A DNA stretch of 64,000 nucleotides from Candidatus Zixiibacteriota bacterium (GTDB taxonomy: Bacteria; Zixibacteria; MSB-5A5; UBA10806; 4484-95). Position numbers and translations under genes: made by a program. Under the pieces are notes generated by a model. It had not been told where the DNA came from. It saw only the letters and a list, made by a program, of their open reading frames with translations, and did no database searches. Below, one piece after another: positions 13,916 through 62,392 of the stretch (its first letter is position 1; every line of letters starts with the position of its first letter). Location: NCBI GenBank assembly GCA_021159005.1, contig JAGGSN010000187.1, forward strand, positions 6,972 through 70,971, in the 5' to 3' direction.

Positions 13916-13984
13916 CGCCCGATGGAATAGCAGGTAAGCCGATTCATCTCGCTTAGTTGCGAACGAACGCAACATTAAAACGTA

Positions 13985-14017
13985 GGGGCGTCCACCTCAG
14001 GAGGATGCCCTCTTTTT
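13985..14017 (+). terminator. intrinsic terminator after rplS
   Basis: GGGGCGTCCacctcaggaGGATGCCC stem followed by CTCTTTTT. Confidence 0.6.
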
Positions 14018-14633: not shown

Positions 14634-14682
14634 TATTTATCGGATGCTGAGGCTTTGCCGCGTGATAGATAATTTCAGGCAG

Positions 14683-14721
14683 TGTTAGTTCATAGTCCGC
14701 CTAAGGCGGATGAACTGACAC
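14683..14721. repeat. family-C long hairpin repeat (…TCAGTTCATAGTCCGCCTAAGGCGGATGAACTGACAC), copy 1, plus partner motif ACCTGCCTGAACAGTTAAATG at 14748-14780
   Basis: inverted repeat around a CCGCCtaaGGCGG core; near-identical copies at 17922 and 29265. Confidence 0.7.
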
Positions 14722-14865
14722 GTTTTACTACACAAAATCGGCAGGTTACGTTTCACTACGACCTGCCTGAACAGTTAAATGAGGGGCAGACGGGGACGTC
14801 TGCCGCCCACGCGAATCCTTGTCCACCATAGGCGGACTTAGGTTGTTGAAAAAGCAGCAACACCT

Positions 14866-15060: not shown

Positions 15061-16404
15061 TTGGCTAAGGATTTAACACAAGGACCATTAGCAAGTCAAA
15101 TAGTCAGGCTGGCTATACCTGGCTTATTATCTCTTTTAGGGATAACGGTCAATCATTTTGTCGATGGCATCTGGGTCGGCAGACTTGGACCTGAAGCACT
15201 GGCGGCAATTACGCCATCATCATTTATAGTATGGATACTCTATTCGATTGTTGACATTATGCCGATAGGTTTGGTGGCAATAATCTCGCGCTATTATGGC
15301 GAGAAAAATCTAACCCAAGCATCGGAAACATCGCAGAAAGTTATTCAATTAGTATTCTTTATATCAATAATATTATCAGTCTGCGGTTGGCTGTTTGCTA
15401 AAAACGCCATGGAGCTTGTTGGGGTATCGGCCGAGGTTGTCAGGCTTGGCAGCATTTATTTGATGATAATCTCGACCTGTCTGCCGGCGATATTCTTAGT
15501 CGAGACTTATTCGAGCATATTCCGGGCAGTTGGCGATACTATCGTGCCTATGAGGCTTATTTTAACGGCAATTATCGCAAATATAATACTTGATCCGCTG
15601 TTGATATTTGGAATCGGTCCCTTCCCCGAAATGGGGATAGCTGGCGCGGCATTAGCTACTGCGATTGGTTATTATTTATCATTGGGTTTGGCATTTGTTG
15701 AATTAAACAGAGGCAAGCTACCTTTCAAAATTATTAAAGCAAGACCGTTGCCTTTTGATTTCCCCCTTCTCTGGCGGATTGCTAAGATAGGACTTCCAAT
15801 TTCAATATCAGGAATTGGCTTTTCTATAGTATATTTGGCGTTGGTAAGAATTGCCGCTCCATTCGGTGATTATGTAGTAGCCTCATTCAGGGTTGGTCAA
15901 TTTATCGAGGCTGTTTCCTTTATGATATGTTTCGGTTTTGGGCAGGCGACAGCGAGCATGATAGGACAGAATCTCGGCGCCAAGCTTACCGACCGAGCGG
16001 AAAAATCAGCGCAAACGGCAATTGGCATTGTTTCCGGCATTACCATAGCGTTTTCATTCATATTTTTCTTTGCCGCCAAGCCGTTAGTCTCAATATTCTC
16101 AAGCGATATTCAGGTGGCAACTGCGGCGGCTTTATATCTGAAAATCATAGCCATCTCGCAATTGTTTATGGGATTAGAGATCGTTTATGAGGGCGCTTTC
16201 TCAGGGGCGGGCGATACATTGCCCCCGATGCTGATTTCAATTATTGGCACTACCTTGCGAATCCCATTGGCAATTATCTTCGTTGGACCGTTAAATTGGG
16301 GATACCAGGGAATGTACTGGGCGATCACAATTTCGACGGTTTTAAAAGGAGTTAGTATCTTTATCTGGTTTAAGCTTGGCAGATGGAAACTGAAGCAGGT
16401 ATAG
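15061..16404 (+). CDS. MATE family efflux transporter
   Basis: 447 aa, 12 TM-like segments, duplicated halves typical of MATE/NorM. Confidence 0.75.
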   Translation: MAKDLTQGPLASQIVRLAIPGLLSLLGITVNHFVDGIWVGRLGPEALAAITPSSFIVWILYSIVDIMPIGLVAIISRYYGEKNLTQASETSQKVIQLVFFISIILSVCGWLFAKNAMELVGVSAEVVRLGSIYLMIISTCLPAIFLVETYSSIFRAVGDTIVPMRLILTAIIANIILDPLLIFGIGPFPEMGIAGAALATAIGYYLSLGLAFVELNRGKLPFKIIKARPLPFDFPLLWRIAKIGLPISISGIGFSIVYLALVRIAAPFGDYVVASFRVGQFIEAVSFMICFGFGQATASMIGQNLGAKLTDRAEKSAQTAIGIVSGITIAFSFIFFFAAKPLVSIFSSDIQVATAAALYLKIIAISQLFMGLEIVYEGAFSGAGDTLPPMLISIIGTTLRIPLAIIFVGPLNWGYQGMYWAITISTVLKGVSIFIWFKLGRWKLKQV

Positions 16405-16413
16405 AAATTTTAA

Positions 16414-16440
16414 TGGTTGGCGTACGTCCTCGTCTGCCAA
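16414..16440. repeat. family-A hairpin repeat (consensus GGCTGGTGTACGTCCTCGTGCACCAGC), diverged copy
   Basis: ggttggcgtacgtcctcgtctgccaac. Confidence 0.6.
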
Positions 16441-16555
16441 CTTAAGAAATAAAGAATAGCCAAGACCACAAGTCCGCCTCAGTCGGATTGACCTACAAAA
16501 TACTAAACGTTCCCCTTTTATTGAATATATCGATATAATCATTTGTTAACAGTCT

Positions 16556-16600
16556 GAGGGCGTATGCAATACGAGGGCGTATGCAATACGCCCCTACGCG
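16556..16600. repeat. family-B hairpin repeat (GAGGGCGTATGCAATACGCCCCTACGCG), 1.5 tandem copies
   Basis: GGGCGTAT-gca-ATACGCCC perfect 8-bp stem. Confidence 0.75.
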
Positions 16601-16612
16601 AACGGTGTTTCA

Positions 16613-16667
16613 GTGGCTGGTGTACGTCCTCCTTTATAGTGGCTGGTGTACGTCCTCGTGCACCAAC
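16613..16667. repeat. family-A repeats: truncated copy then full copy
   Basis: ggctggtgtacgtcctcc…ggctggtgtacgtcctcgtgcaccaac followed by caataagtt as at 28039. Confidence 0.75.
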
Positions 16668-16676
16668 AATAAGTTC

Positions 16677-16746
16677 AGGGCGTATGCAATACGCCTCTAC
16701 GCGCAACGGCATTTCAGTGGTTGGTGTATGTTCTTGTGCACCAACT
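16677..16746. repeat. composite B + A unit (B 16677-16704, A-variant 16718-16746)
   Basis: same B-spacer-cagtgg-A arrangement as 16574-16667 and 27970-28038. Confidence 0.7.
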
Positions 16747-16830
16747 TCAGTGGTTCATGTGGATGGCATCCGCCATAGGCGGGCTCGTCTGCCAACAACG
16801 ACCCTTGACTGGGCTTATCCGCCTTACCGG

Positions 16831-16866
16831 GCAAACAAAAAGGCAGGTCTCGGAAAGACCTGCCCT
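16831..16866 (-). terminator. intrinsic terminator for the - strand gene 16895-17260
   Basis: revcomp GGGCAGGTCTttccgAGACCTGCC followed by TTTTTGTTT. Confidence 0.6.
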
Positions 16867-16894
16867 ACATAGTTTCCATCCTAATACCTGAAAA

Positions 16895-17260
16895 CTATCT
16901 TCTTCTGCCGATAGCCCTCATCTTCTTCTTAAGATCGGGATTTTCCGCCATTTTTTCAAGCATCATATCAGACATACCTTCATACCCGAGAAGCTTCTCG
17001 AATATAACCTGCCGCTTATCCATCTGCTCAGTCAAGCGGTTTATAGTAGAGCTGACCCAGATGGTGTCTGCAAATAACTGATTAGTGATATCCGCTTTGA
17101 TTGTTTCATTCTCAAGCATCTTGCTCATAAGATAGCTTTTCATTTCCGGTTTTTCTAAAATCTGGTCAATCGCTTTGCGCCGGTCGCAATTTACAAACAA
17201 CACAGCGGCAATAAGCGTAATGAGTAATAATGTTAGAAGCTTTCTCAATTGTTCCTCCAT
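16895..17260 (-). CDS. hypothetical lipoprotein
   Basis: signal peptide with FVNC lipobox-like site; no recognisable domain. Confidence 0.4.
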   Translation of the reverse strand: MEEQLRKLLTLLLITLIAAVLFVNCDRRKAIDQILEKPEMKSYLMSKMLENETIKADITNQLFADTIWVSSTINRLTEQMDKRQVIFEKLLGYEGMSDMMLEKMAENPDLKKKMRAIGRRR

Positions 17261-17370: not shown

Positions 17371-17832
17371 ATGGTAATGTCGGATTTTGATAGAAATATT
17401 GCCTTGGCTAAGTTCAAATCTTTTCTGGCGGAAAAAGGGTTGAAACTTACCGCTGAAAGGCTAATCATATTAGAGGAATCATTAGCCACCGAGGGGCATT
17501 TCGAGGCGGATGACCTTTTGATGATATTAAAAAATAAAGGCCGCAAAACATCGCGGGCGACTGTCTATCGGACTCTGGATATTATCGCTTTAGCTGGAAT
17601 TCTCCGCAAGGTTTATCTTGGCGATGCGCCGGTGCAGTTCGAGAAAATTACCGATGAGCCCCAGCATGACCACATGATTTGCCAGAAATGCGGCGCCAAA
17701 ATCGAATTTCATCTGCCCGAACTAAGCGAACTTCAAGAACAGCTCTGCGATGAACATGATTTTACCATGAAAGCCTATAGTCTGCAAATTTACGGTATAT
17801 GTTCTAATTGTTCGGAAAATAAGAGCGTTTAG
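17371..17832 (+). CDS. fur: Fur family transcriptional regulator
   Basis: winged-helix N-terminus, HDHMICQKCG, CSNC metal-binding motifs. Confidence 0.8.
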   Translation: MVMSDFDRNIALAKFKSFLAEKGLKLTAERLIILEESLATEGHFEADDLLMILKNKGRKTSRATVYRTLDIIALAGILRKVYLGDAPVQFEKITDEPQHDHMICQKCGAKIEFHLPELSELQEQLCDEHDFTMKAYSLQIYGICSNCSENKSV

Positions 17833-17866
17833 GGGTGTCCGCCTGAGGAGGACGCCCTCTTTTTTA
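17832..17866 (+). terminator. intrinsic terminator after fur, covarying homolog of the rplS terminator
   Basis: GGGGTGTCCgcctgaggaGGACGCCC then CTCTTTTTT. Confidence 0.6.
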
Positions 17867-17921
17867 TTATTCCCCTCTTGAGGGAGGTTAGGGGTATGTT
17901 ATTAACGCAAAATTTTATGTT

Positions 17922-17962
17922 GTGTCAGTTCGTAGTCCGCCTAAGGCGGATGAACCGGCACT
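17922..17962. repeat. family-C long hairpin repeat copy 2, plus partner motif at 17988-18021
   Basis: tgtcagttcgtagtccgcctaaggcggatgaaccggcac … cgtttcgctacgcatgcctaaacagttaaatg. Confidence 0.7.
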
Positions 17963-18099
17963 TTTTGCTTGATAAGAATATCGCCAGGTCACGTTTCGCT
18001 ACGCATGCCTAAACAGTTAAATGTTCTGAAAATAAAATGGGGAAGCTCCTATTTTACTAAAAGATTGACCGTTAATACAGTTATCTATATATTAAATAC

Positions 18100-24904: not shown

Positions 24905-24917
24905 TTAATAATTTTGT

Positions 24918-24949
24918 GGCTGGTGTGCATCACCGTGCGCCAGTTTTTA
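24918..24949 (+). terminator. family-A repeat variant followed by T-run, acting as intrinsic terminator
   Basis: GGCTGGTGTGCATCACCGTGCGCCAG + TTTTTAT 14 nt after the stop codon. Confidence 0.5.
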
Positions 24950-25238
24950 TGATATGCTGTCAGGTGCGGGGACATGACAGCGCTTGAAAATCATTTAAAG
25001 CTATTAATTAATATCACTGAATAGTCAGGAGTCGGAGACTCCTGACCTACTTCCTAAATATATAGTGAGTGCAAGGTAATTTTAAATATCAAATCTCACT
25101 CAGTTATCGCAGGTTGGGTTCTCCACCCCAGGCGGATGAGTGGAGCGAACGAGCGGACGAAGTCCTTTATTCAACCCGACACCTCTCACAACAATATAAT
25201 ATTTTTTCCTTTAGTAAAATCCCTATCATAATCGAAAT

Positions 25239-25413: not shown

Positions 25414-25428
25414 AAGACGGTATCTACA

Positions 25429-25455
25429 AAGCTGGTGTACGTCCTCGTGTAGCTT
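25429..25455. repeat. family-A hairpin repeat, diverged copy, immediately 3' of the IS110 remnant and flanking the GIY-YIG gene
   Basis: aagctggtgtacgtcctcgtgtagctt. Confidence 0.6.
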
Positions 25456-25458
25456 ATG

Positions 25459-25863: not shown

Positions 25864-25893
25864 AAAACCTCCTGAAAATGGTAGTTATTTTGT

Positions 25894-25920
25894 GGCTGGT
25901 GTACGTCCCCGTGCACCAGC
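25894..25920. repeat. family-A hairpin repeat
   Basis: ggctggtgtacgtccccgtgcaccagc. Confidence 0.75.
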
Positions 25921-26052
25921 TATTTTATCGCCGCGGTGAGTCGAACCGAGGCTGAAAGCCTCGGCTATTATATATCCTAATATATTATATACTTCAAGAT
26001 GGTTCATCTCAGGTGAGCCGTATGACTGTAGGGATGCGGTTGCTCTTGGCAA

Positions 26053-26421
26053 CTACCGTTTCGATTTCTTACTCGATGTGTCCTTCTCGCTGTTTTTCTT
26101 TTCGATTTTTTTAACCTTCACCGGCATTTTCTGCTCAATTTTTGGTTTGGGCTTGGGTGGCGCAACCTTCTTGACAGCCGGCGCTTTGCGTTTCTGATAA
26201 TCATCGTTAATTCCATCGCCGTCTTTGTCGATAAACTTATCTTTCACAGGTAAGGCTGCAGCTTTCGATTTCAGTTTTACAGCCGGCGTTTTCTTATCAA
26301 TCTTCTTTTCGATTTTGGTCGAATCTTTTTTGCTTTTCTTAGACACTTTCTGAATAGCAAAAGCCTCCGCACCGCTCATAGCTATGAACAGCGCCAACGT
26401 CAATATAATTACTTTTTTCAT
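26053..26421 (-). CDS. secreted Lys-rich protein with thrombospondin-type-3-like Ca-binding motif
   Basis: signal peptide MKKVIILTLALFIAMSGAEA; DKDGDGINDD; KKSKK low-complexity; start ATG overlaps upstream gene stop (ATGA). Confidence 0.55.
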   Translation of the reverse strand: MKKVIILTLALFIAMSGAEAFAIQKVSKKSKKDSTKIEKKIDKKTPAVKLKSKAAALPVKDKFIDKDGDGINDDYQKRKAPAVKKVAPPKPKPKIEQKMPVKVKKIEKKNSEKDTSSKKSKR

Positions 26422-27782: not shown

Positions 27783-27811
27783 ATCAACCACCTTGTTTAA
27801 TATTATTGTAG

Positions 27812-27857
27812 GTCGGGTTCTCCGCCTAAGGCGGACCGTAGCGGGGAGAAACCCGAC
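27812..27857. repeat. family-D hairpin repeat containing CCGCCTAAGGCGG core
   Basis: ggtcgggttctccgcctaaggcggaccgtagcggggagaaacccgac. Confidence 0.6.
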
Positions 27858-27888: not shown

Positions 27889-27999
27889 GAGGGCGTATGC
27901 AATACGCCCCTACGCGGAATAGCATGCGAGGGCGTATGCAATACGCCCCTACGCGGAATAATAGCATGCGAGGGCGTATGCAATACGGCCCCTACGCGG
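27889..27999. repeat. three tandem family-B repeats (39-42 bp period), no unique spacers
   Basis: gcatgcgagggcgtatgcaatacgcccctacgcggaata x3. Confidence 0.8.
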
Positions 28000-28011
28000 A
28001 ACAGTAATTGT

Positions 28012-28038
28012 GGCTGGTGTACGTCCTCGTGCACCAGC
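28012..28038. repeat. family-A hairpin repeat
   Basis: ggctggtgtacgtcctcgtgcaccagc then caataagtt. Confidence 0.8.
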
Positions 28039-28053
28039 AATAAGTTATTGTAA

Positions 28054-28091
28054 GTCGGGTTCCGACCCAACGCAGTAGGGGAGAAACCCGA
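28054..28091. repeat. family-D hairpin repeat
   Basis: gtcgggttccgacccaacgcagtaggggagaaacccgat. Confidence 0.55.
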
Positions 28092-28219
28092 TACAACCAC
28101 TTCATTTAACCCGATGCCGCTTGATTTGTTTTCATCTTTCATCATCGCTGCCTTTTTCTACAGCTGGTATCCGCCATTGACGGACACCAACCATATTACC
28201 CTATAAGAAATTATGCCCC

Positions 28220-29047: not shown

Positions 29048-29264
29048 TGAAACCTCCTGTTGTTATCGTCTGATAATTAATTAATCAATAATCATGCCAA
29101 AATCGCTAATTCTGTAACATGCAGTCTTTCAGGGAGATATGGTTTTACGTAAAAATGTCGGTTGCTGTTATGCACAATATTTGTTCGTTTGGCAACTATA
29201 GTTGTGCATGGCTATTATTCACATTGCAGGGAAATCCGAGCCGCCTAAACATTTGATTCGGGGT

Positions 29265-29304
29265 TGTGTCAGTTTGCAGTCCGCCTAAGGCGGATGAACT
29301 GACA
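29265..29304. repeat. family-C long hairpin repeat copy 3
   Basis: tgtgtcagtttgcagtccgcctaaggcggatgaactgacaca. Confidence 0.7.
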
Positions 29305-29566
29305 CATATAGCGAAGACAGGAACCACTGCCTGATTCCGGTAATATAAAAGTATCAATGTTGATAGGGAAATATTCCTGACAACGCTTGAATTAATCACT
29401 CCCTGATAATTTTTTAAATTTTGTAAAAACAAAATAATATCAACTTTGTTAATTGTGGTTAGGTTATTCTATATAATTGTGATTCATAGTCTTAAATGGA
29501 ATTATTAATGTTAAGCAATTGGCTTGCCAAACCGATAAAATATTTTAAATGTTTTAAAAAAAGTTC

Positions 29567-29716: not shown

Positions 29717-29807
29717 ATTAAACAGAATATGGTTTGCCGAGTGTAGAAATTATTATTGCAGTTCGGTGATTAAATAATGAATTTATGTGGCAGGAGAAGG
29801 ATGACTG

Positions 29808-31016
29808 ATGGCCAAGGAGAAATTTGAGCGAACGAAACCGCATGTGAATGTAGGTACGATAGGTCATGTTGATCATGGCAAGACTACATTAACGGCGGCG
29901 ATGACGATGATATTGGGTCGCAAGGGTCAGGCGGCGGTTCGCGATTTTGATTCGATTGACAATGCTCCGGAGGAGCGTGAGCGCGGCATAACGATAGCGA
30001 CGGCGCATGTTGAGTATGAGACCGATAGGCGTCATTATGCTCATGTTGATTGTCCTGGTCACGCCGATTATGTTAAGAACATGATAACGGGTGCGGCCCA
30101 GATGGATGGCGCGATATTGGTAGTTAGCGCGGCGGATGGTCCGATGCCTCAGACGCGCGAGCATATATTATTGGCACGTCAGGTAGGAGTTCCTTACATA
30201 GTTGTATTCATGAACAAGATAGACCAGGTAGATGATCCTGAGTTATTAGACTTGGTGGAGCTTGAGGTACGGGATTTATTGAGTCAGTATCAATTTCCGG
30301 GTGATGACATTCCGATAATTCGTGGTTCGGCATTAGAGGCTATGAATCGCGGCGCTGATGAGAGCGTACCTTATGATGATCCTGCTTTTAAGTGTGTGCA
30401 TGAGTTGATGGATGCGGTAGACAGCTATATACCGGAGCCGAAGCGTGATATTGACAAGCCGTTTTTATTGCCGATAGAGGATGTATTTTCGATAACGGGT
30501 CGAGGTACGGTAGGAACGGGTCGAGTTGAGCGCGGCAAGATAAAGACCGGTGATCCTGTTGAGCGTGTTGGTGTTAGGGAGACTCGCAAGACGGTAGTAA
30601 CGGGTGTTGAGATGTTTCGGAAGATATTGGATTATGCTCAGGCGGGCGATAATGTAGGTTTGTTATTGCGCGGAGTAGATAAGAATGATCTTGAGCGCGG
30701 CATGGTTTTGGCGGCGCCTGGCAGTATTAAGCCGCACAAGAAGTTTAAGGGAGAGGTATACATTTTGACGAAGGAAGAGGGTGGTCGTCACACGCCGTTT
30801 TTCAATGGTTATCGTCCGCAGTTTTATTTTCGGACGACGGATGTAACAGGTACGGTGAAGCTTCCGGAAGGTGTTGAGATGGTAATGCCTGGTGATAATG
30901 TAACAGTAGAAGGCGAGTTAATAACGCCGATAGCGATGGAGAAAGAGCTTCGTTTTGCTATCCGTGAAGGCGGCCGCACCGTAGGCGCCGGCGTTATTAG
31001 CGAAATAATAGAGTAA
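29808..31016 (+). CDS. tuf: elongation factor Tu (copy 1, tufB-type position)
   Basis: [25 protein letters not shown]; 402 aa; identical to the copy at 45482. Confidence 0.95.
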
Positions 31017-45417: not shown

Positions 45418-45481
45418 ATAGGGACGTTATTTTTATTTTTTAGTGATTTGATAATGGAAAATAAAGTTAAGGAGATGACTG

Positions 45482-46690
45482 ATGGCCAAGGAGAAATTTG
45501 AGCGAACGAAACCGCATGTGAATGTAGGTACGATAGGTCATGTTGATCATGGCAAGACTACATTAACGGCGGCGATGACGATGATATTGGGTCGCAAGGG
45601 TCAGGCGGCGGTTCGCGATTTTGATTCGATTGACAATGCTCCGGAGGAGCGTGAGCGCGGCATAACGATAGCGACGGCGCATGTTGAGTATGAGACCGAT
45701 AGGCGTCATTATGCTCATGTTGATTGTCCTGGTCACGCCGATTATGTTAAGAACATGATAACGGGTGCGGCCCAGATGGATGGCGCGATATTGGTAGTTA
45801 GCGCGGCGGATGGTCCGATGCCTCAGACGCGCGAGCATATATTATTGGCACGTCAGGTAGGAGTTCCTTACATAGTTGTATTCATGAACAAGATAGACCA
45901 GGTAGATGATCCTGAGTTATTAGACTTGGTGGAGCTTGAGGTACGGGATTTATTGAGTCAGTATCAATTTCCGGGTGATGACATTCCGATAATTCGTGGT
46001 TCGGCATTAGAGGCTATGAATCGCGGCGCTGATGAGAGCGTACCTTATGATGATCCTGCTTTTAAGTGTGTGCATGAGTTGATGGATGCGGTAGACAGCT
46101 ATATACCGGAGCCGAAGCGTGATATTGACAAGCCGTTTTTATTGCCGATAGAGGATGTATTTTCGATAACGGGTCGAGGTACGGTAGGAACGGGTCGAGT
46201 TGAGCGCGGCAAGATAAAGACCGGTGATCCTGTTGAGCGTGTTGGTGTTAGGGAGACTCGCAAGACGGTAGTAACGGGTGTTGAGATGTTTCGGAAGATA
46301 TTGGATTATGCTCAGGCGGGCGATAATGTAGGTTTGTTATTGCGCGGAGTAGATAAGAATGATCTTGAGCGCGGCATGGTTTTGGCGGCGCCTGGCAGTA
46401 TTAAGCCGCACAAGAAGTTTAAGGGAGAGGTATACATTTTGACGAAGGAAGAGGGTGGTCGTCACACGCCGTTTTTCAATGGTTATCGTCCGCAGTTTTA
46501 TTTTCGGACGACGGATGTAACAGGTACGGTGAAGCTTCCGGAAGGTGTTGAGATGGTAATGCCTGGTGATAATGTAACAGTAGAAGGCGAGTTAATAACG
46601 CCGATAGCGATGGAGAAAGAGCTTCGTTTTGCTATCCGTGAAGGCGGCCGCACCGTAGGCGCCGGCGTTATTAGCGAAATAATAGAGTAA
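45482..46690 (+). CDS. tuf: elongation factor Tu (copy 2, tufA-type position)
   Basis: protein identical to copy 1; nucleotide identity extends from ~10 nt upstream of ATG to the stop. Confidence 0.95.
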
Positions 46691-61888: not shown

Positions 61889-61915
61889 TTTGCGTATTAA
61901 ACTCAGTTTAAATTA

Positions 61916-61945
61916 GGCCGGACGATTTCGCCCGGCCTTTTTGTT
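61916..61945 (+). terminator. intrinsic terminator ending the ribosomal super-operon
   Basis: GGCCGGacgatttcgCCCGGCC + TTTTTGTT. Confidence 0.7.
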
Positions 61946-62328
61946 AATGCCGCTATATTAGTATTTTGTTTTAACCCAAGTTTTTGCAGTAGAAGTTTAT
62001 TATAGCAGTGATTATCACATAAAGCATTGCAATGAATCGATATCATTACACCATTTTAGCTCGGTTTACTAAGCGGTGCTTGGCAGCCAGGGAAAATAAC
62101 CTCACAGATAAAGTGAAATATTAGAAAACTGTCTTAATACTATTACAATCGTCAACATGCCCCTAAATCTCCTCTCAAGAGGGGGACTTCGTTAACATAT
62201 CACAAATGAGAATTGCCATAAAACCCTAAATCCTCCGCCATTTACGGGGGACTTTTAGATTGCATAGCCATATAACGTGTTAGCGCAAATATTATTCCTC
62301 TCTCGAGAGGGGTTAGGGGTGTGTTATG

Positions 62329-62386
62329 ACTGGTGTACGTCCTCGTGCAAAAGCGTCGCGGCTGGTGTACGTCCTCGTGCACCGGC
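62329..62386. repeat. two family-A hairpin repeats (truncated + full) adjacent to prfB 3' end
   Basis: gactggtgtacgtcctcgtgcaa … ggctggtgtacgtcctcgtgcaccggc. Confidence 0.75.
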
Positions 62387-62392
62387 ATTTAG

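Follow-up and report, generated by a model that had tools for sequence, protein, structure and literature searches.

An undescribed family of REP hairpins of the GTAG-tagged class in uncultured Zixibacteria

Introduction

What kind of element is the small hairpin that recurs between genes around positions 16414-16746 of this DNA, and how did it come to occupy so many sites? The window, meaning the whole 64,000-nt stretch analysed here, had been predicted from its letters to contain a 27-nt hairpin repeat (hereafter family A) at 11 or more sites, and the repeat had been described as REP-like. The evidence assembled below indicates that family A is an undescribed REP family in the uncultured phylum Zixibacteria, within the known class of GTAG-tagged REPs. 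REPs, or repetitive extragenic palindromes, are short repeats in the gaps between bacterial genes whose copying is attributed to a domesticated transposase. Its fold, its partners, its distribution and its neighbouring genes are considered in turn, followed by the explanations that compete to account for its spread and conservation.

Copies of family A in the window

A pattern search with the 27-mer GGCTGGTGTACGTCCTCGTGCACCAGC returned five plus-strand matches at up to three mismatches, against none in 100 dinucleotide-preserving shuffles. A looser search (up to seven substitutions), a repeat search and a profile search recovered 11 copies or variants, where chance predicts none, and these searches retrieved every site listed in the original prediction. 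All 11 copies lie on the plus strand, spread over seven intergenic regions. By the public gene calls each falls between genes, as had been claimed, with the sole exception of a 102-aa call at 16564-16872. This call has no Pfam match and its sequence is built of the repeats themselves; it is therefore probably spurious, and we flag it as a probable artefact among the public annotations.

The copies range from perfect to heavily decayed. The first, GTGGTTGGTGTACGTCCTCGCGCACTAAC (113-141, +), carries a GT head and is followed by a T run. Its neighbours are the stop of an HD-domain gene (452) on one side and, on the other, the start of the minus-strand gene that follows. At 16413-16441 (+), beginning 9 nt past the end of a MatE gene, stands ATGGTTGGCGTACGTCCTCGTCTGCCAAC, a degenerate hybrid between family A and a related type, A2. 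Three further units follow in the same region: a truncated copy that keeps the head, the 5' arm and the loop and ends after the loop (16613-16631, +), a copy with one mismatch inside a composite with a second family, B (16639-16667, +), and a degenerate copy in which C-to-T changes have created three G·T pairs while the plus-strand fold is kept (16717-16745, +). Further along, a degenerate copy followed by a T run occupies 24916-24944 (+), 11 nt past a gene stop, and another, devoid of the GT head, occupies 25428-25456 (+) and ends 2 nt before the stop of a convergent minus-strand gene (25459). The copy at 25892-25920 (+) has a TCCC loop and is flanked by two minus-strand genes, and the perfect copy at 28010-28038 (+) closes a mosaic of three minus-strand B units and one plus-strand A unit. 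Partial head-to-tail tandems occur at 16613-16667 and 62326-62386; in the latter, the first unit (62326-62354, +) has three mismatches and an ATG head, and the second (62358-62386, +) has one mismatch and ends 6 nt before the stop of a convergent release-factor gene (62393).

The hairpin and its 5' head

Folding reproduces exactly the structure that had been proposed, an 11-bp stem with one G·U pair and a UCCU loop. Written as DNA, the G·U pair of the family-A consensus is T·G and its tetraloop is TCCT, the loop reading TCCY across copies. The consensus reaches -11.9 kcal/mol as DNA (z = -6.8) and -20.7 kcal/mol as RNA (z = -6.0), and no shuffle matched its energy in either form.

In an alignment of 81 distinct copies, paired cells amount to 94.2%, against 84.9% after shuffling, and two-sided changes occupy 96 cells where 41 are expected, a count reached by 0 of 500 shuffles. 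Sliding the 3' partners by 1-3 columns in this alignment destroys the pairing. The three outer stem pairs and the head fall outside the 20-mer with which other genomes were searched and are therefore free of ascertainment bias. These outer pairs show compensatory change between genomes, with one dominant version in each: the window and its closest carrier have GGCTGG..CCAGC, the genome MAG50 has GCGTGG..CCACG and AC1.147 has GGTTGG..CCAAC, with GGATGG..CCATC as a further version among carriers. In the 55 copies that lack the exact search core, pair 7-22 is T-A in some and C-G in others, and 50 retain T9·G20. The compensatory changes, together with pairing above the shuffled level, argue that the hairpin is under selection.

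A second conserved feature lies outside the stem. Across 251 distinct copies, each of G(-2), T(-1) and G(1) is kept in 95-97% of cases and positions -6 to -3 are rich in T and C, whereas the sequence 3' of the stem shows no conservation. Family A is consequently asymmetric, with an unpaired head at its 5' side only. Since the fourth base, G or C, is already part of the stem, the tag reads GTG(G/C), and the GTG head represents a conserved unpaired 5' tag of the GT[AG]G type. Two earlier studies document GTG(G/C) as a variant of that tag (PMC3733652, PMC6006769), the first of them with GTGG itself on record. The original prediction had overlooked this head, as well as an inverted relative of the repeat at 14783-14810 (-) and the GTAG-headed nature of family B.

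Partner families and mosaics

At least four other tagged hairpin families coexist with family A, in dimers and in BIME-like nests. One of them in the window is family B, a classical GTAG-headed REP that reads GTAG-GGGCGTATTGCATACGCCC on the minus strand, where all of its window copies lie. One copy, GTAGGGGCGTATTGCATACGCCC (16575-16597, -), stands tag to tag with family A and has a partial extra copy beside it (16558-16573); another, with one mismatch, is paired with the 16717 copy (16678-16700, -). Three tandem units (27891-27913, 27930-27952 and 27972-27995, all -) adjoin the 28010 copy, with their number uncertain because the public scaffold has an N gap there. Tags of B(-) and A(+) face each other across a linker of 14-20 nt that is also conserved. 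Three such B(-)-linker-A(+) composites stand in the window, two of them at 16575-16745 and the third at 27972-28038, and the composite dimers appear to have been duplicated as units.

The A2 type is a sister type of family A. Its representative in the window, GTGGGCGGCAGACGTCCCCGTCTGCCCC (14783-14810, -), has the head, a TCCC loop and the ACG/CGT apex as in family A, with a different stem. In other genomes, A2 is the usual inverted partner of family A: it lies downstream at a median of about 11 nt, heads outward, at 44 of 272 copies, compared with 3 of 272 in a random control. Such a partner reads GGCRGACGRGGACGTCYGCC followed by CCAC, which on its own strand corresponds to GTGG, stem, TCCY and stem. 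In the terms of PMC3733652, the A-A2 pairs are heterodimers with tags outside.

Occurrence across genomes

The cross-genome search used an exact 20-mer from the family-A core, TGGTGTACGTCCTCGTGCAC. It matched 93 stretches of species-representative genomes, belonging to about 28 true carrier MAGs, and 116 stretches of JGI metagenome contigs. Carrier MAGs are labelled Zixibacteria (15), GN15 or unclassified 'bacterium', and four are Ignavibacteria (as labelled). The window itself derives from an 86-kb metagenome scaffold, and RpoB and RpoA assign it to Zixibacteria: the best named RpoB match is 81% identical, an RpoA identical over all 329 aa belongs to a Zixibacteria MAG at NCBI, and every named match is from this phylum. 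They hold 1-44 copies each, a lower bound given that only loci with the exact 20-mer were counted. The retrieved carrier loci span 36% to 59% G+C, and the core is nearly identical throughout. Matches labelled Streptosporangiaceae, Gemmatimonadales and Latescibacterota (L003, L070 and L083) were set aside as chance matches without the head or the outer stem, that in L070 sitting in an rpoA-like ORF. Zero IMG/VR contigs contain the core, and on this ground a phage or mobile-element origin was rejected.

Copies avoid long reading frames, with a median of 339 nt for an ORF that spans one and 1020 nt at random positions of the same loci. The flanking genes differ from locus to locus and no gene family is common to the flanks; family A is therefore a dispersed repeat rather than a conserved leader or trailer. 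Recurring neighbours are limited to dockerin-like proteins, sigma-54 regulators, ABC ATPases and RAYTs, and no other transposase family, TnpB-like genes included, recurs near the copies.

A literature search on the exact strings of families A and B found nothing. It likewise found no paper linking Zixibacteria with REPINs and no REP description for this phylum. In Rfam 15, only two tRNAs reach the gathering score in the whole window, and no match overlaps the copies in 16300-16950 at E up to 1, so a known RNA family was discarded as an identity. The earlier description as a REP-like element is borne out by the palindrome, the 5' head, the extragenic placement of multiple copies in the window and the retrieved loci, the preference for gene 3' ends and the organisation in dimers and mosaics.

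RAYT genes and the proposed mode of spread

RAYT-type genes surfaced when ORFs near the copies were clustered, recognisable by the motifs PDH(V/L/I)H and Y(V/I)H(Y/N)NPV. Four such ORFs in carrier genomes pass both NCBIfam NF047646 (REP-associated tyrosine transposase) and Pfam Y1_Tnp, and one from a metagenome locus aligns over its whole length with E. coli TnpA-REP (PDB 4ER8) at E = 1.8e-33. With a profile made from these ORFs, the 1.5 Mb of sampled loci yielded 10 RAYT genes or remnants. Six (L014, L018, L086, L140, L197 and L221) have a family-A copy within 1 kb, where by our estimate roughly 2.8 would be expected under an even distribution, small as these numbers are. At L197, the RAYT stop is followed at 125-190 nt by an A-A2 dimer; at L140, two inverted A-type copies form a dimer 250-330 nt upstream. 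In MAG50, RAYT remnants occur 300-350 nt from copies, one of them truncated and the other cut off at the edge of the examined locus, and a homologue search with the MAG50 remnant returned only four short matches. RAYTs are present in carrier genomes, but none was found in the 77 kb of the source contig that was covered, which takes in the window and 9.5 kb to the left of it.

The innermost REPs flanking each RAYT seen belong to other GTAG families, and no RAYT directly flanked by family A occurs in 209 loci. The immediately flanking repeats read GTAGGTCAGGAGC..., GTAGGGAAGAACC... and GTAGGGCGGGTCCGTCCTCGAACCCGCC. The first of these families also has one copy in the window (25024-25050), and the last, from MAG50, has the loop core CGTCCTCG in common with family A. 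A core that is near-identical over 36-59% G+C while the RAYT-flanking REPs differ between carrier genomes is unexpected for simple REP/RAYT co-evolution.

The best explanation, to which we assign a probability of about 0.7, is that family A is a REP of the GTAG superfamily that has been spread by a RAYT. We infer mobilisation of this kind, and the RAYTs near family-A copies are the candidates for the enzyme that would act on it. The mechanism proposed here is modelled on E. coli TnpA-REP, which acts on single-stranded REP and not on inverted REP, and which needs both the head and the stem irregularity (PMC8266576). The motif strand would fold as single-stranded DNA, for example at the replication fork, and an HUH-Y1 RAYT would recognise the head together with the irregular hairpin, then cut and rejoin beside it. 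Single units and dimers could thereby be spread and homogenised in intergenic DNA, with insertions mostly just past gene ends, where they would be tolerated. Surviving copies would accumulate as BIME-like nests with other REP families, and transcribed copies may additionally act as RNA hairpins.

Gene ends, strand preference and a possible RNA role

Gene ends are the preferred location of family A. Among 63 classifiable clusters, placed by crude ORF-based calls, the gap is convergent in 23, co-directional in 31 and divergent in nine, and a gene 3' end adjoins 54; when position relative to gene ends is tabulated, gene 3' ends and convergent gaps are favoured. Four of the window copies lie 2-11 nt from stop codons. 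Both observations would suit a host-selected RNA element in 3' UTRs that serves mRNA 3' protection, operon punctuation or ribosome stalling, with spread as a secondary matter. REPs of E. coli have roles in mRNA stabilisation and, when near stop codons, in translation. We nevertheless regard this reading as unlikely for family A. Orientation is not tied to transcription, as the motif is antisense in 20 and sense in 11 of the co-directional gaps, and the 25892 and 28010 copies are antisense to both neighbours.

The 3' side of the hairpin offers little to this alternative either. Only 28 of 271 copies have a T-rich tail (at least six T in the next 10 nt), about 10%, and a Rho-independent terminator was rejected for that reason. 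The 24916 copy alone scores as terminator-like among the eight window copies in the scanned region. Canonical terminators exist separately: ordinary hairpin-plus-T structures are present in these organisms, for instance after rplQ in the window and in three relatives. Moreover, the best-conserved feature of the family is the unpaired 5' GTG head, which has no obvious use in an RNA hairpin, and the genome-specific, homogenised stem variants at non-orthologous sites would be left unexplained.

The pairing also shows a strand preference. At positions free of the search, G·T combinations outnumber A·C by 53 to 22 (binomial p = 4.5e-4, with copies that are non-independent), and folding indicates that G·T pairs stabilise RNA far more than DNA. 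Most changes in the degenerate window copies are transitions after which G·T pairing persists on the motif strand. The 16717 and 24916 copies retain a good fold on the plus strand only, more clearly as RNA than as DNA, with -15.7 kcal/mol as RNA on the motif strand against -8.2. The G·T excess suits an RNA element at least as well as a single-stranded DNA one, and PMC3733652 takes frequent G·T pairing as a sign that many REPs act in RNA form. Part of the excess could stem from strand-biased C-to-T mutation. Folding on one strand is as compatible with an RNA role as with single-strand recognition by a RAYT; under the proposed mechanism the selected form would be DNA in its single-stranded state, and not RNA.

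A further point in favour of an RNA element concerns persistence. In a related metagenome contig (L139), whose flanking genes are 82-90% identical in nucleotides to those of the window, the 28010 copy is found at the orthologous site with identical sequence amid diverged intergenic DNA. The B-type units beside it have diverged, and two copies of another GTAG-headed element present in the window (27808-27857 and 28046-28092) are absent there. Family-A copies can therefore persist for long while other REP families turn over nearby. The original prediction had read the degenerate copies as a sign of ongoing decay and turnover; this is only partly borne out, since the identical orthologous copy speaks for persistence alongside decay. 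Four other assemblies of the source population, 99.95-100% identical, show no family-A insertion polymorphism and no indels at the copies. Regions of about 9-24 kb each from relatives with RpoB/RpoA 78-85% identical contain no family A; synteny with these relatives breaks upstream of tufB and right after rplQ, so that the sites are not comparable.

An orientation rule based on the replication strand was also considered. Of 21 MAG50 loci, 19 have the motif on the C-rich strand irrespective of how the genes are oriented, whereas in the window it lies on the G-rich strand, where skew simply tracks the coding strand. Other genomes show no trend of motif strand with GC skew, and the rule was rejected for this inconsistency.

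Selection, protein binding and larger elements

A related proposal holds that family A is a phylum-wide structured element kept by selection, beyond a selfish REP. The conserved core, the one orthologous copy, the G·T pairing on one strand and the lack of an own REPtron among those found speak for it, and we give it a minor share of the probability, much as for the RNA element. Within this proposal, the repeat could be a REP that hitch-hikes on RAYTs flanked by other REPs, or it could be a host-domesticated signal at gene ends, acting as RNA or as single-stranded DNA.

It is considerably less probable that family A is a duplex or cruciform binding site for a host protein such as gyrase, IHF or a nucleoid protein, of the kind reported for BIMEs of E. 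coli. Such a site would be kept for chromosome structuring, and recombination or slippage, not a transposase, would be its means of spread. A core strongly conserved across very different G+C contents would suit such a site, as would the clustering of copies in mosaics and tandems, and a 131-nt indel that is bounded by REPs and distinguishes two strains shows that repeats do recombine with each other. PMC2817692 describes BIMEs as protein binding sites. Compensatory changes and tolerance of G·T, however, indicate intrastrand pairing and not duplex readout, and an asymmetric 5' head combined with a strand-specific T·G pair is characteristic of elements recognised as single strands. Recombination alone, in addition, cannot place copies at more than 200 unrelated loci.

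Another alternative, that family A derives from the termini or debris of a larger mobile element, either a MITE or an IS200/IS605-type element with TnpB, is very improbable: the hairpin does lie inside longer tandem units at three loci (units of about 121 nt at L060 and of 54-93 nt at L004 and L086) and IS200/IS605 ends are hairpins, but the conserved region does not extend past the head at its 5' side or past the stem foot at its 3' side, with no terminal inverted repeats, no target duplications, no TnpB-like gene recurrent nearby and no viral or mobile contigs with the motif.

Implications and relation to known systems

Spread of a GTAG-class REP by a RAYT remains the preferred reading, and it extends the range of REP/RAYT systems to an uncultured phylum of the FCB group. 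Several GTAG- and GTG-headed families coexist in these genomes and fill most of the long intergenic gaps, and their nests explain scaffold gaps. With its conserved head, single T·G pair, compensatory variants and nearby candidate RAYTs, family A offers a clean test case for RAYT specificity. If a host function proved true, it would bear on whether REPs are parasites, symbionts or regulatory parts.

Three known systems provide points of comparison. REPINs of Pseudomonas are REP doublets that form hairpins and are mobilised by RAYTs. Family A resembles them in that about 16% of its copies belong to inverted doublets whose heads point outward and whose units are a short spacer apart. It differs in that the partners are of unlike type (A/A2 or A/B), which precludes a long perfect doublet hairpin, and most copies are singletons or head-to-tail tandems.

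The REP/BIME elements of E. coli and their TnpA-REP (4ER8; PMC3479197, PMC8266576) share more of the architecture: an imperfect palindrome, a conserved stem irregularity, a preceding head and strand asymmetry. Two REP types alternate in inverted order across short conserved linkers in both cases, B and A here and Y and Z there, and RAYT proteins homologous to TnpA-REP occur in carrier genomes. The irregularity of family A, in contrast, is a single T·G pair and not a two-mismatch bulge. A REPtron with family-A flanks was not seen among the loci.

The closest counterparts are the GTAG-tagged REPs of Di Nocera, De Gregorio & Rocco 2013 (PMC3733652), and the comparison draws on the available sections of that paper. 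Family A departs from them in its tag, which is GTG(G/C) and not GTAG in almost all copies, and in its sequence, for which no match was found. Its host phylum, Zixibacteria, is not mentioned in those sections, and its core is nearly invariant across genomes of 36-59% G+C. The likenesses are extensive. Both combine an unpaired terminal tag with a stem-loop, the nearest types being the long-stem GTAG-24 and the GTGG-tagged GTAG-20 of Opitutus terrae. Sub-families are set by complementary stem variants, and G·T pairing is frequent. The units stand alone or join into tandems, clusters and dimers, the dimers having their tags turned either out or in, and heterodimers are common. Finally, the elements lie downstream of genes and between convergent genes, and several families are found together in one genome.

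Mosaic structure and family B

Family B, the partner REP placed tag-to-tag with family A in mosaics, is a GTAG-headed element (GTAGGGGCGTATTGCATACGCCC) that occupies the minus strand at 16575-16597, 16678-16700, 27891-27913, 27930-27952 and 27972-27995. Exact matches to its 23-mer were obtained in 26 stretches of IMG/VR whose G+C content ranges from 34% to 69%, and the distribution of the family therefore reaches far outside Zixibacteria. Neither a REP-associated tyrosine transposase (RAYT) nor family A was found in these 26 stretches. The public ENA scaffold contains gaps at about 26051-26105 and 27921-27960 of the window. Since the latter lies inside the family-B tandem, the copy number at 27891-27995 is assembly-dependent.

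The B-A mosaic lies between two plus-strand copies of a longer hairpin element with a GTAG/GTAA head, GTAGGTCGGGTTCTCC...GGGGAGAAACCCGA (27808-27857 and 28046-28092), each preceded by the pentamer TTATT. Both copies are absent from the orthologous intergenic region of the related contig L139 (900-1160), which indicates an insertion/deletion polymorphism of this element, a REP-like family other than A. Variation in length is also seen between two near-identical strains (L143, 3330-3600; L158, 1530-1880), which differ by a 131-nt segment edged by direct copies of another REP than family A, the GTGC-headed GTGCGCGGCACATGTCCACATGTGCCGCG. This difference is a repeat-mediated indel within a REP nest.

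Further repeat families

Additional repeats populate the window. The REP GTAGGTCAGGAGTCTCCGACTCCTGAC, located on the minus strand at 25024-25050 with a degenerate copy at 16470-16500, belongs to a family whose members lie immediately beside RAYT genes in three of the sampled stretches (L014, L221 and L140). A long hairpin around AGTCCGCCTAAGGCGGATGAAC is present in three copies (14671-14729, 17911-17969 and 29255-29313). Two copies of a GTAG/TTAG-headed hairpin, each followed by a T run (13982-14010 and 17829-17857), look like terminators.

Gene calls and local synteny

Public annotation places a 102-aa gene at 16564-16872. This call is probably not a real gene, because it is composed of REP copies and has no match in Pfam. 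The tuf genes at 29800-31016 and 45474-46690 are 100% identical across 1217 nt, an identity of the kind that gene conversion between the two paralogues is expected to produce.

In three relatives with RpoA 79-83% identical (L251, L254 and L255), a metalloenzyme-cdd-deoC operon comes next after rplQ, and a plain terminator alone separates the two. Synteny with these relatives is broken after rplQ in the window (61889-62392), and the family-A tandem within this interval abuts the stop codon of a release-factor gene in convergent orientation.

Strand bias and REPtron-like loci

In MAG50 (JAHLKV01), a genome that carries family A, 19 of 21 loci have the motif on their C-rich strand, independent of gene orientation; examples of MAG50 loci are L006, L018, L052, L076, L082 and L086. 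The window, in contrast, displays the reverse of this bias. MAG50 also harbors at least two complete loci resembling REPtrons, that is, a RAYT gene together with its flanking REPs (L004, 1630-2830; L033, 220-1400), and their REP families differ. One MAG50 RAYT is preceded by four tandem GTAG REPs and followed by a single inverted REP.
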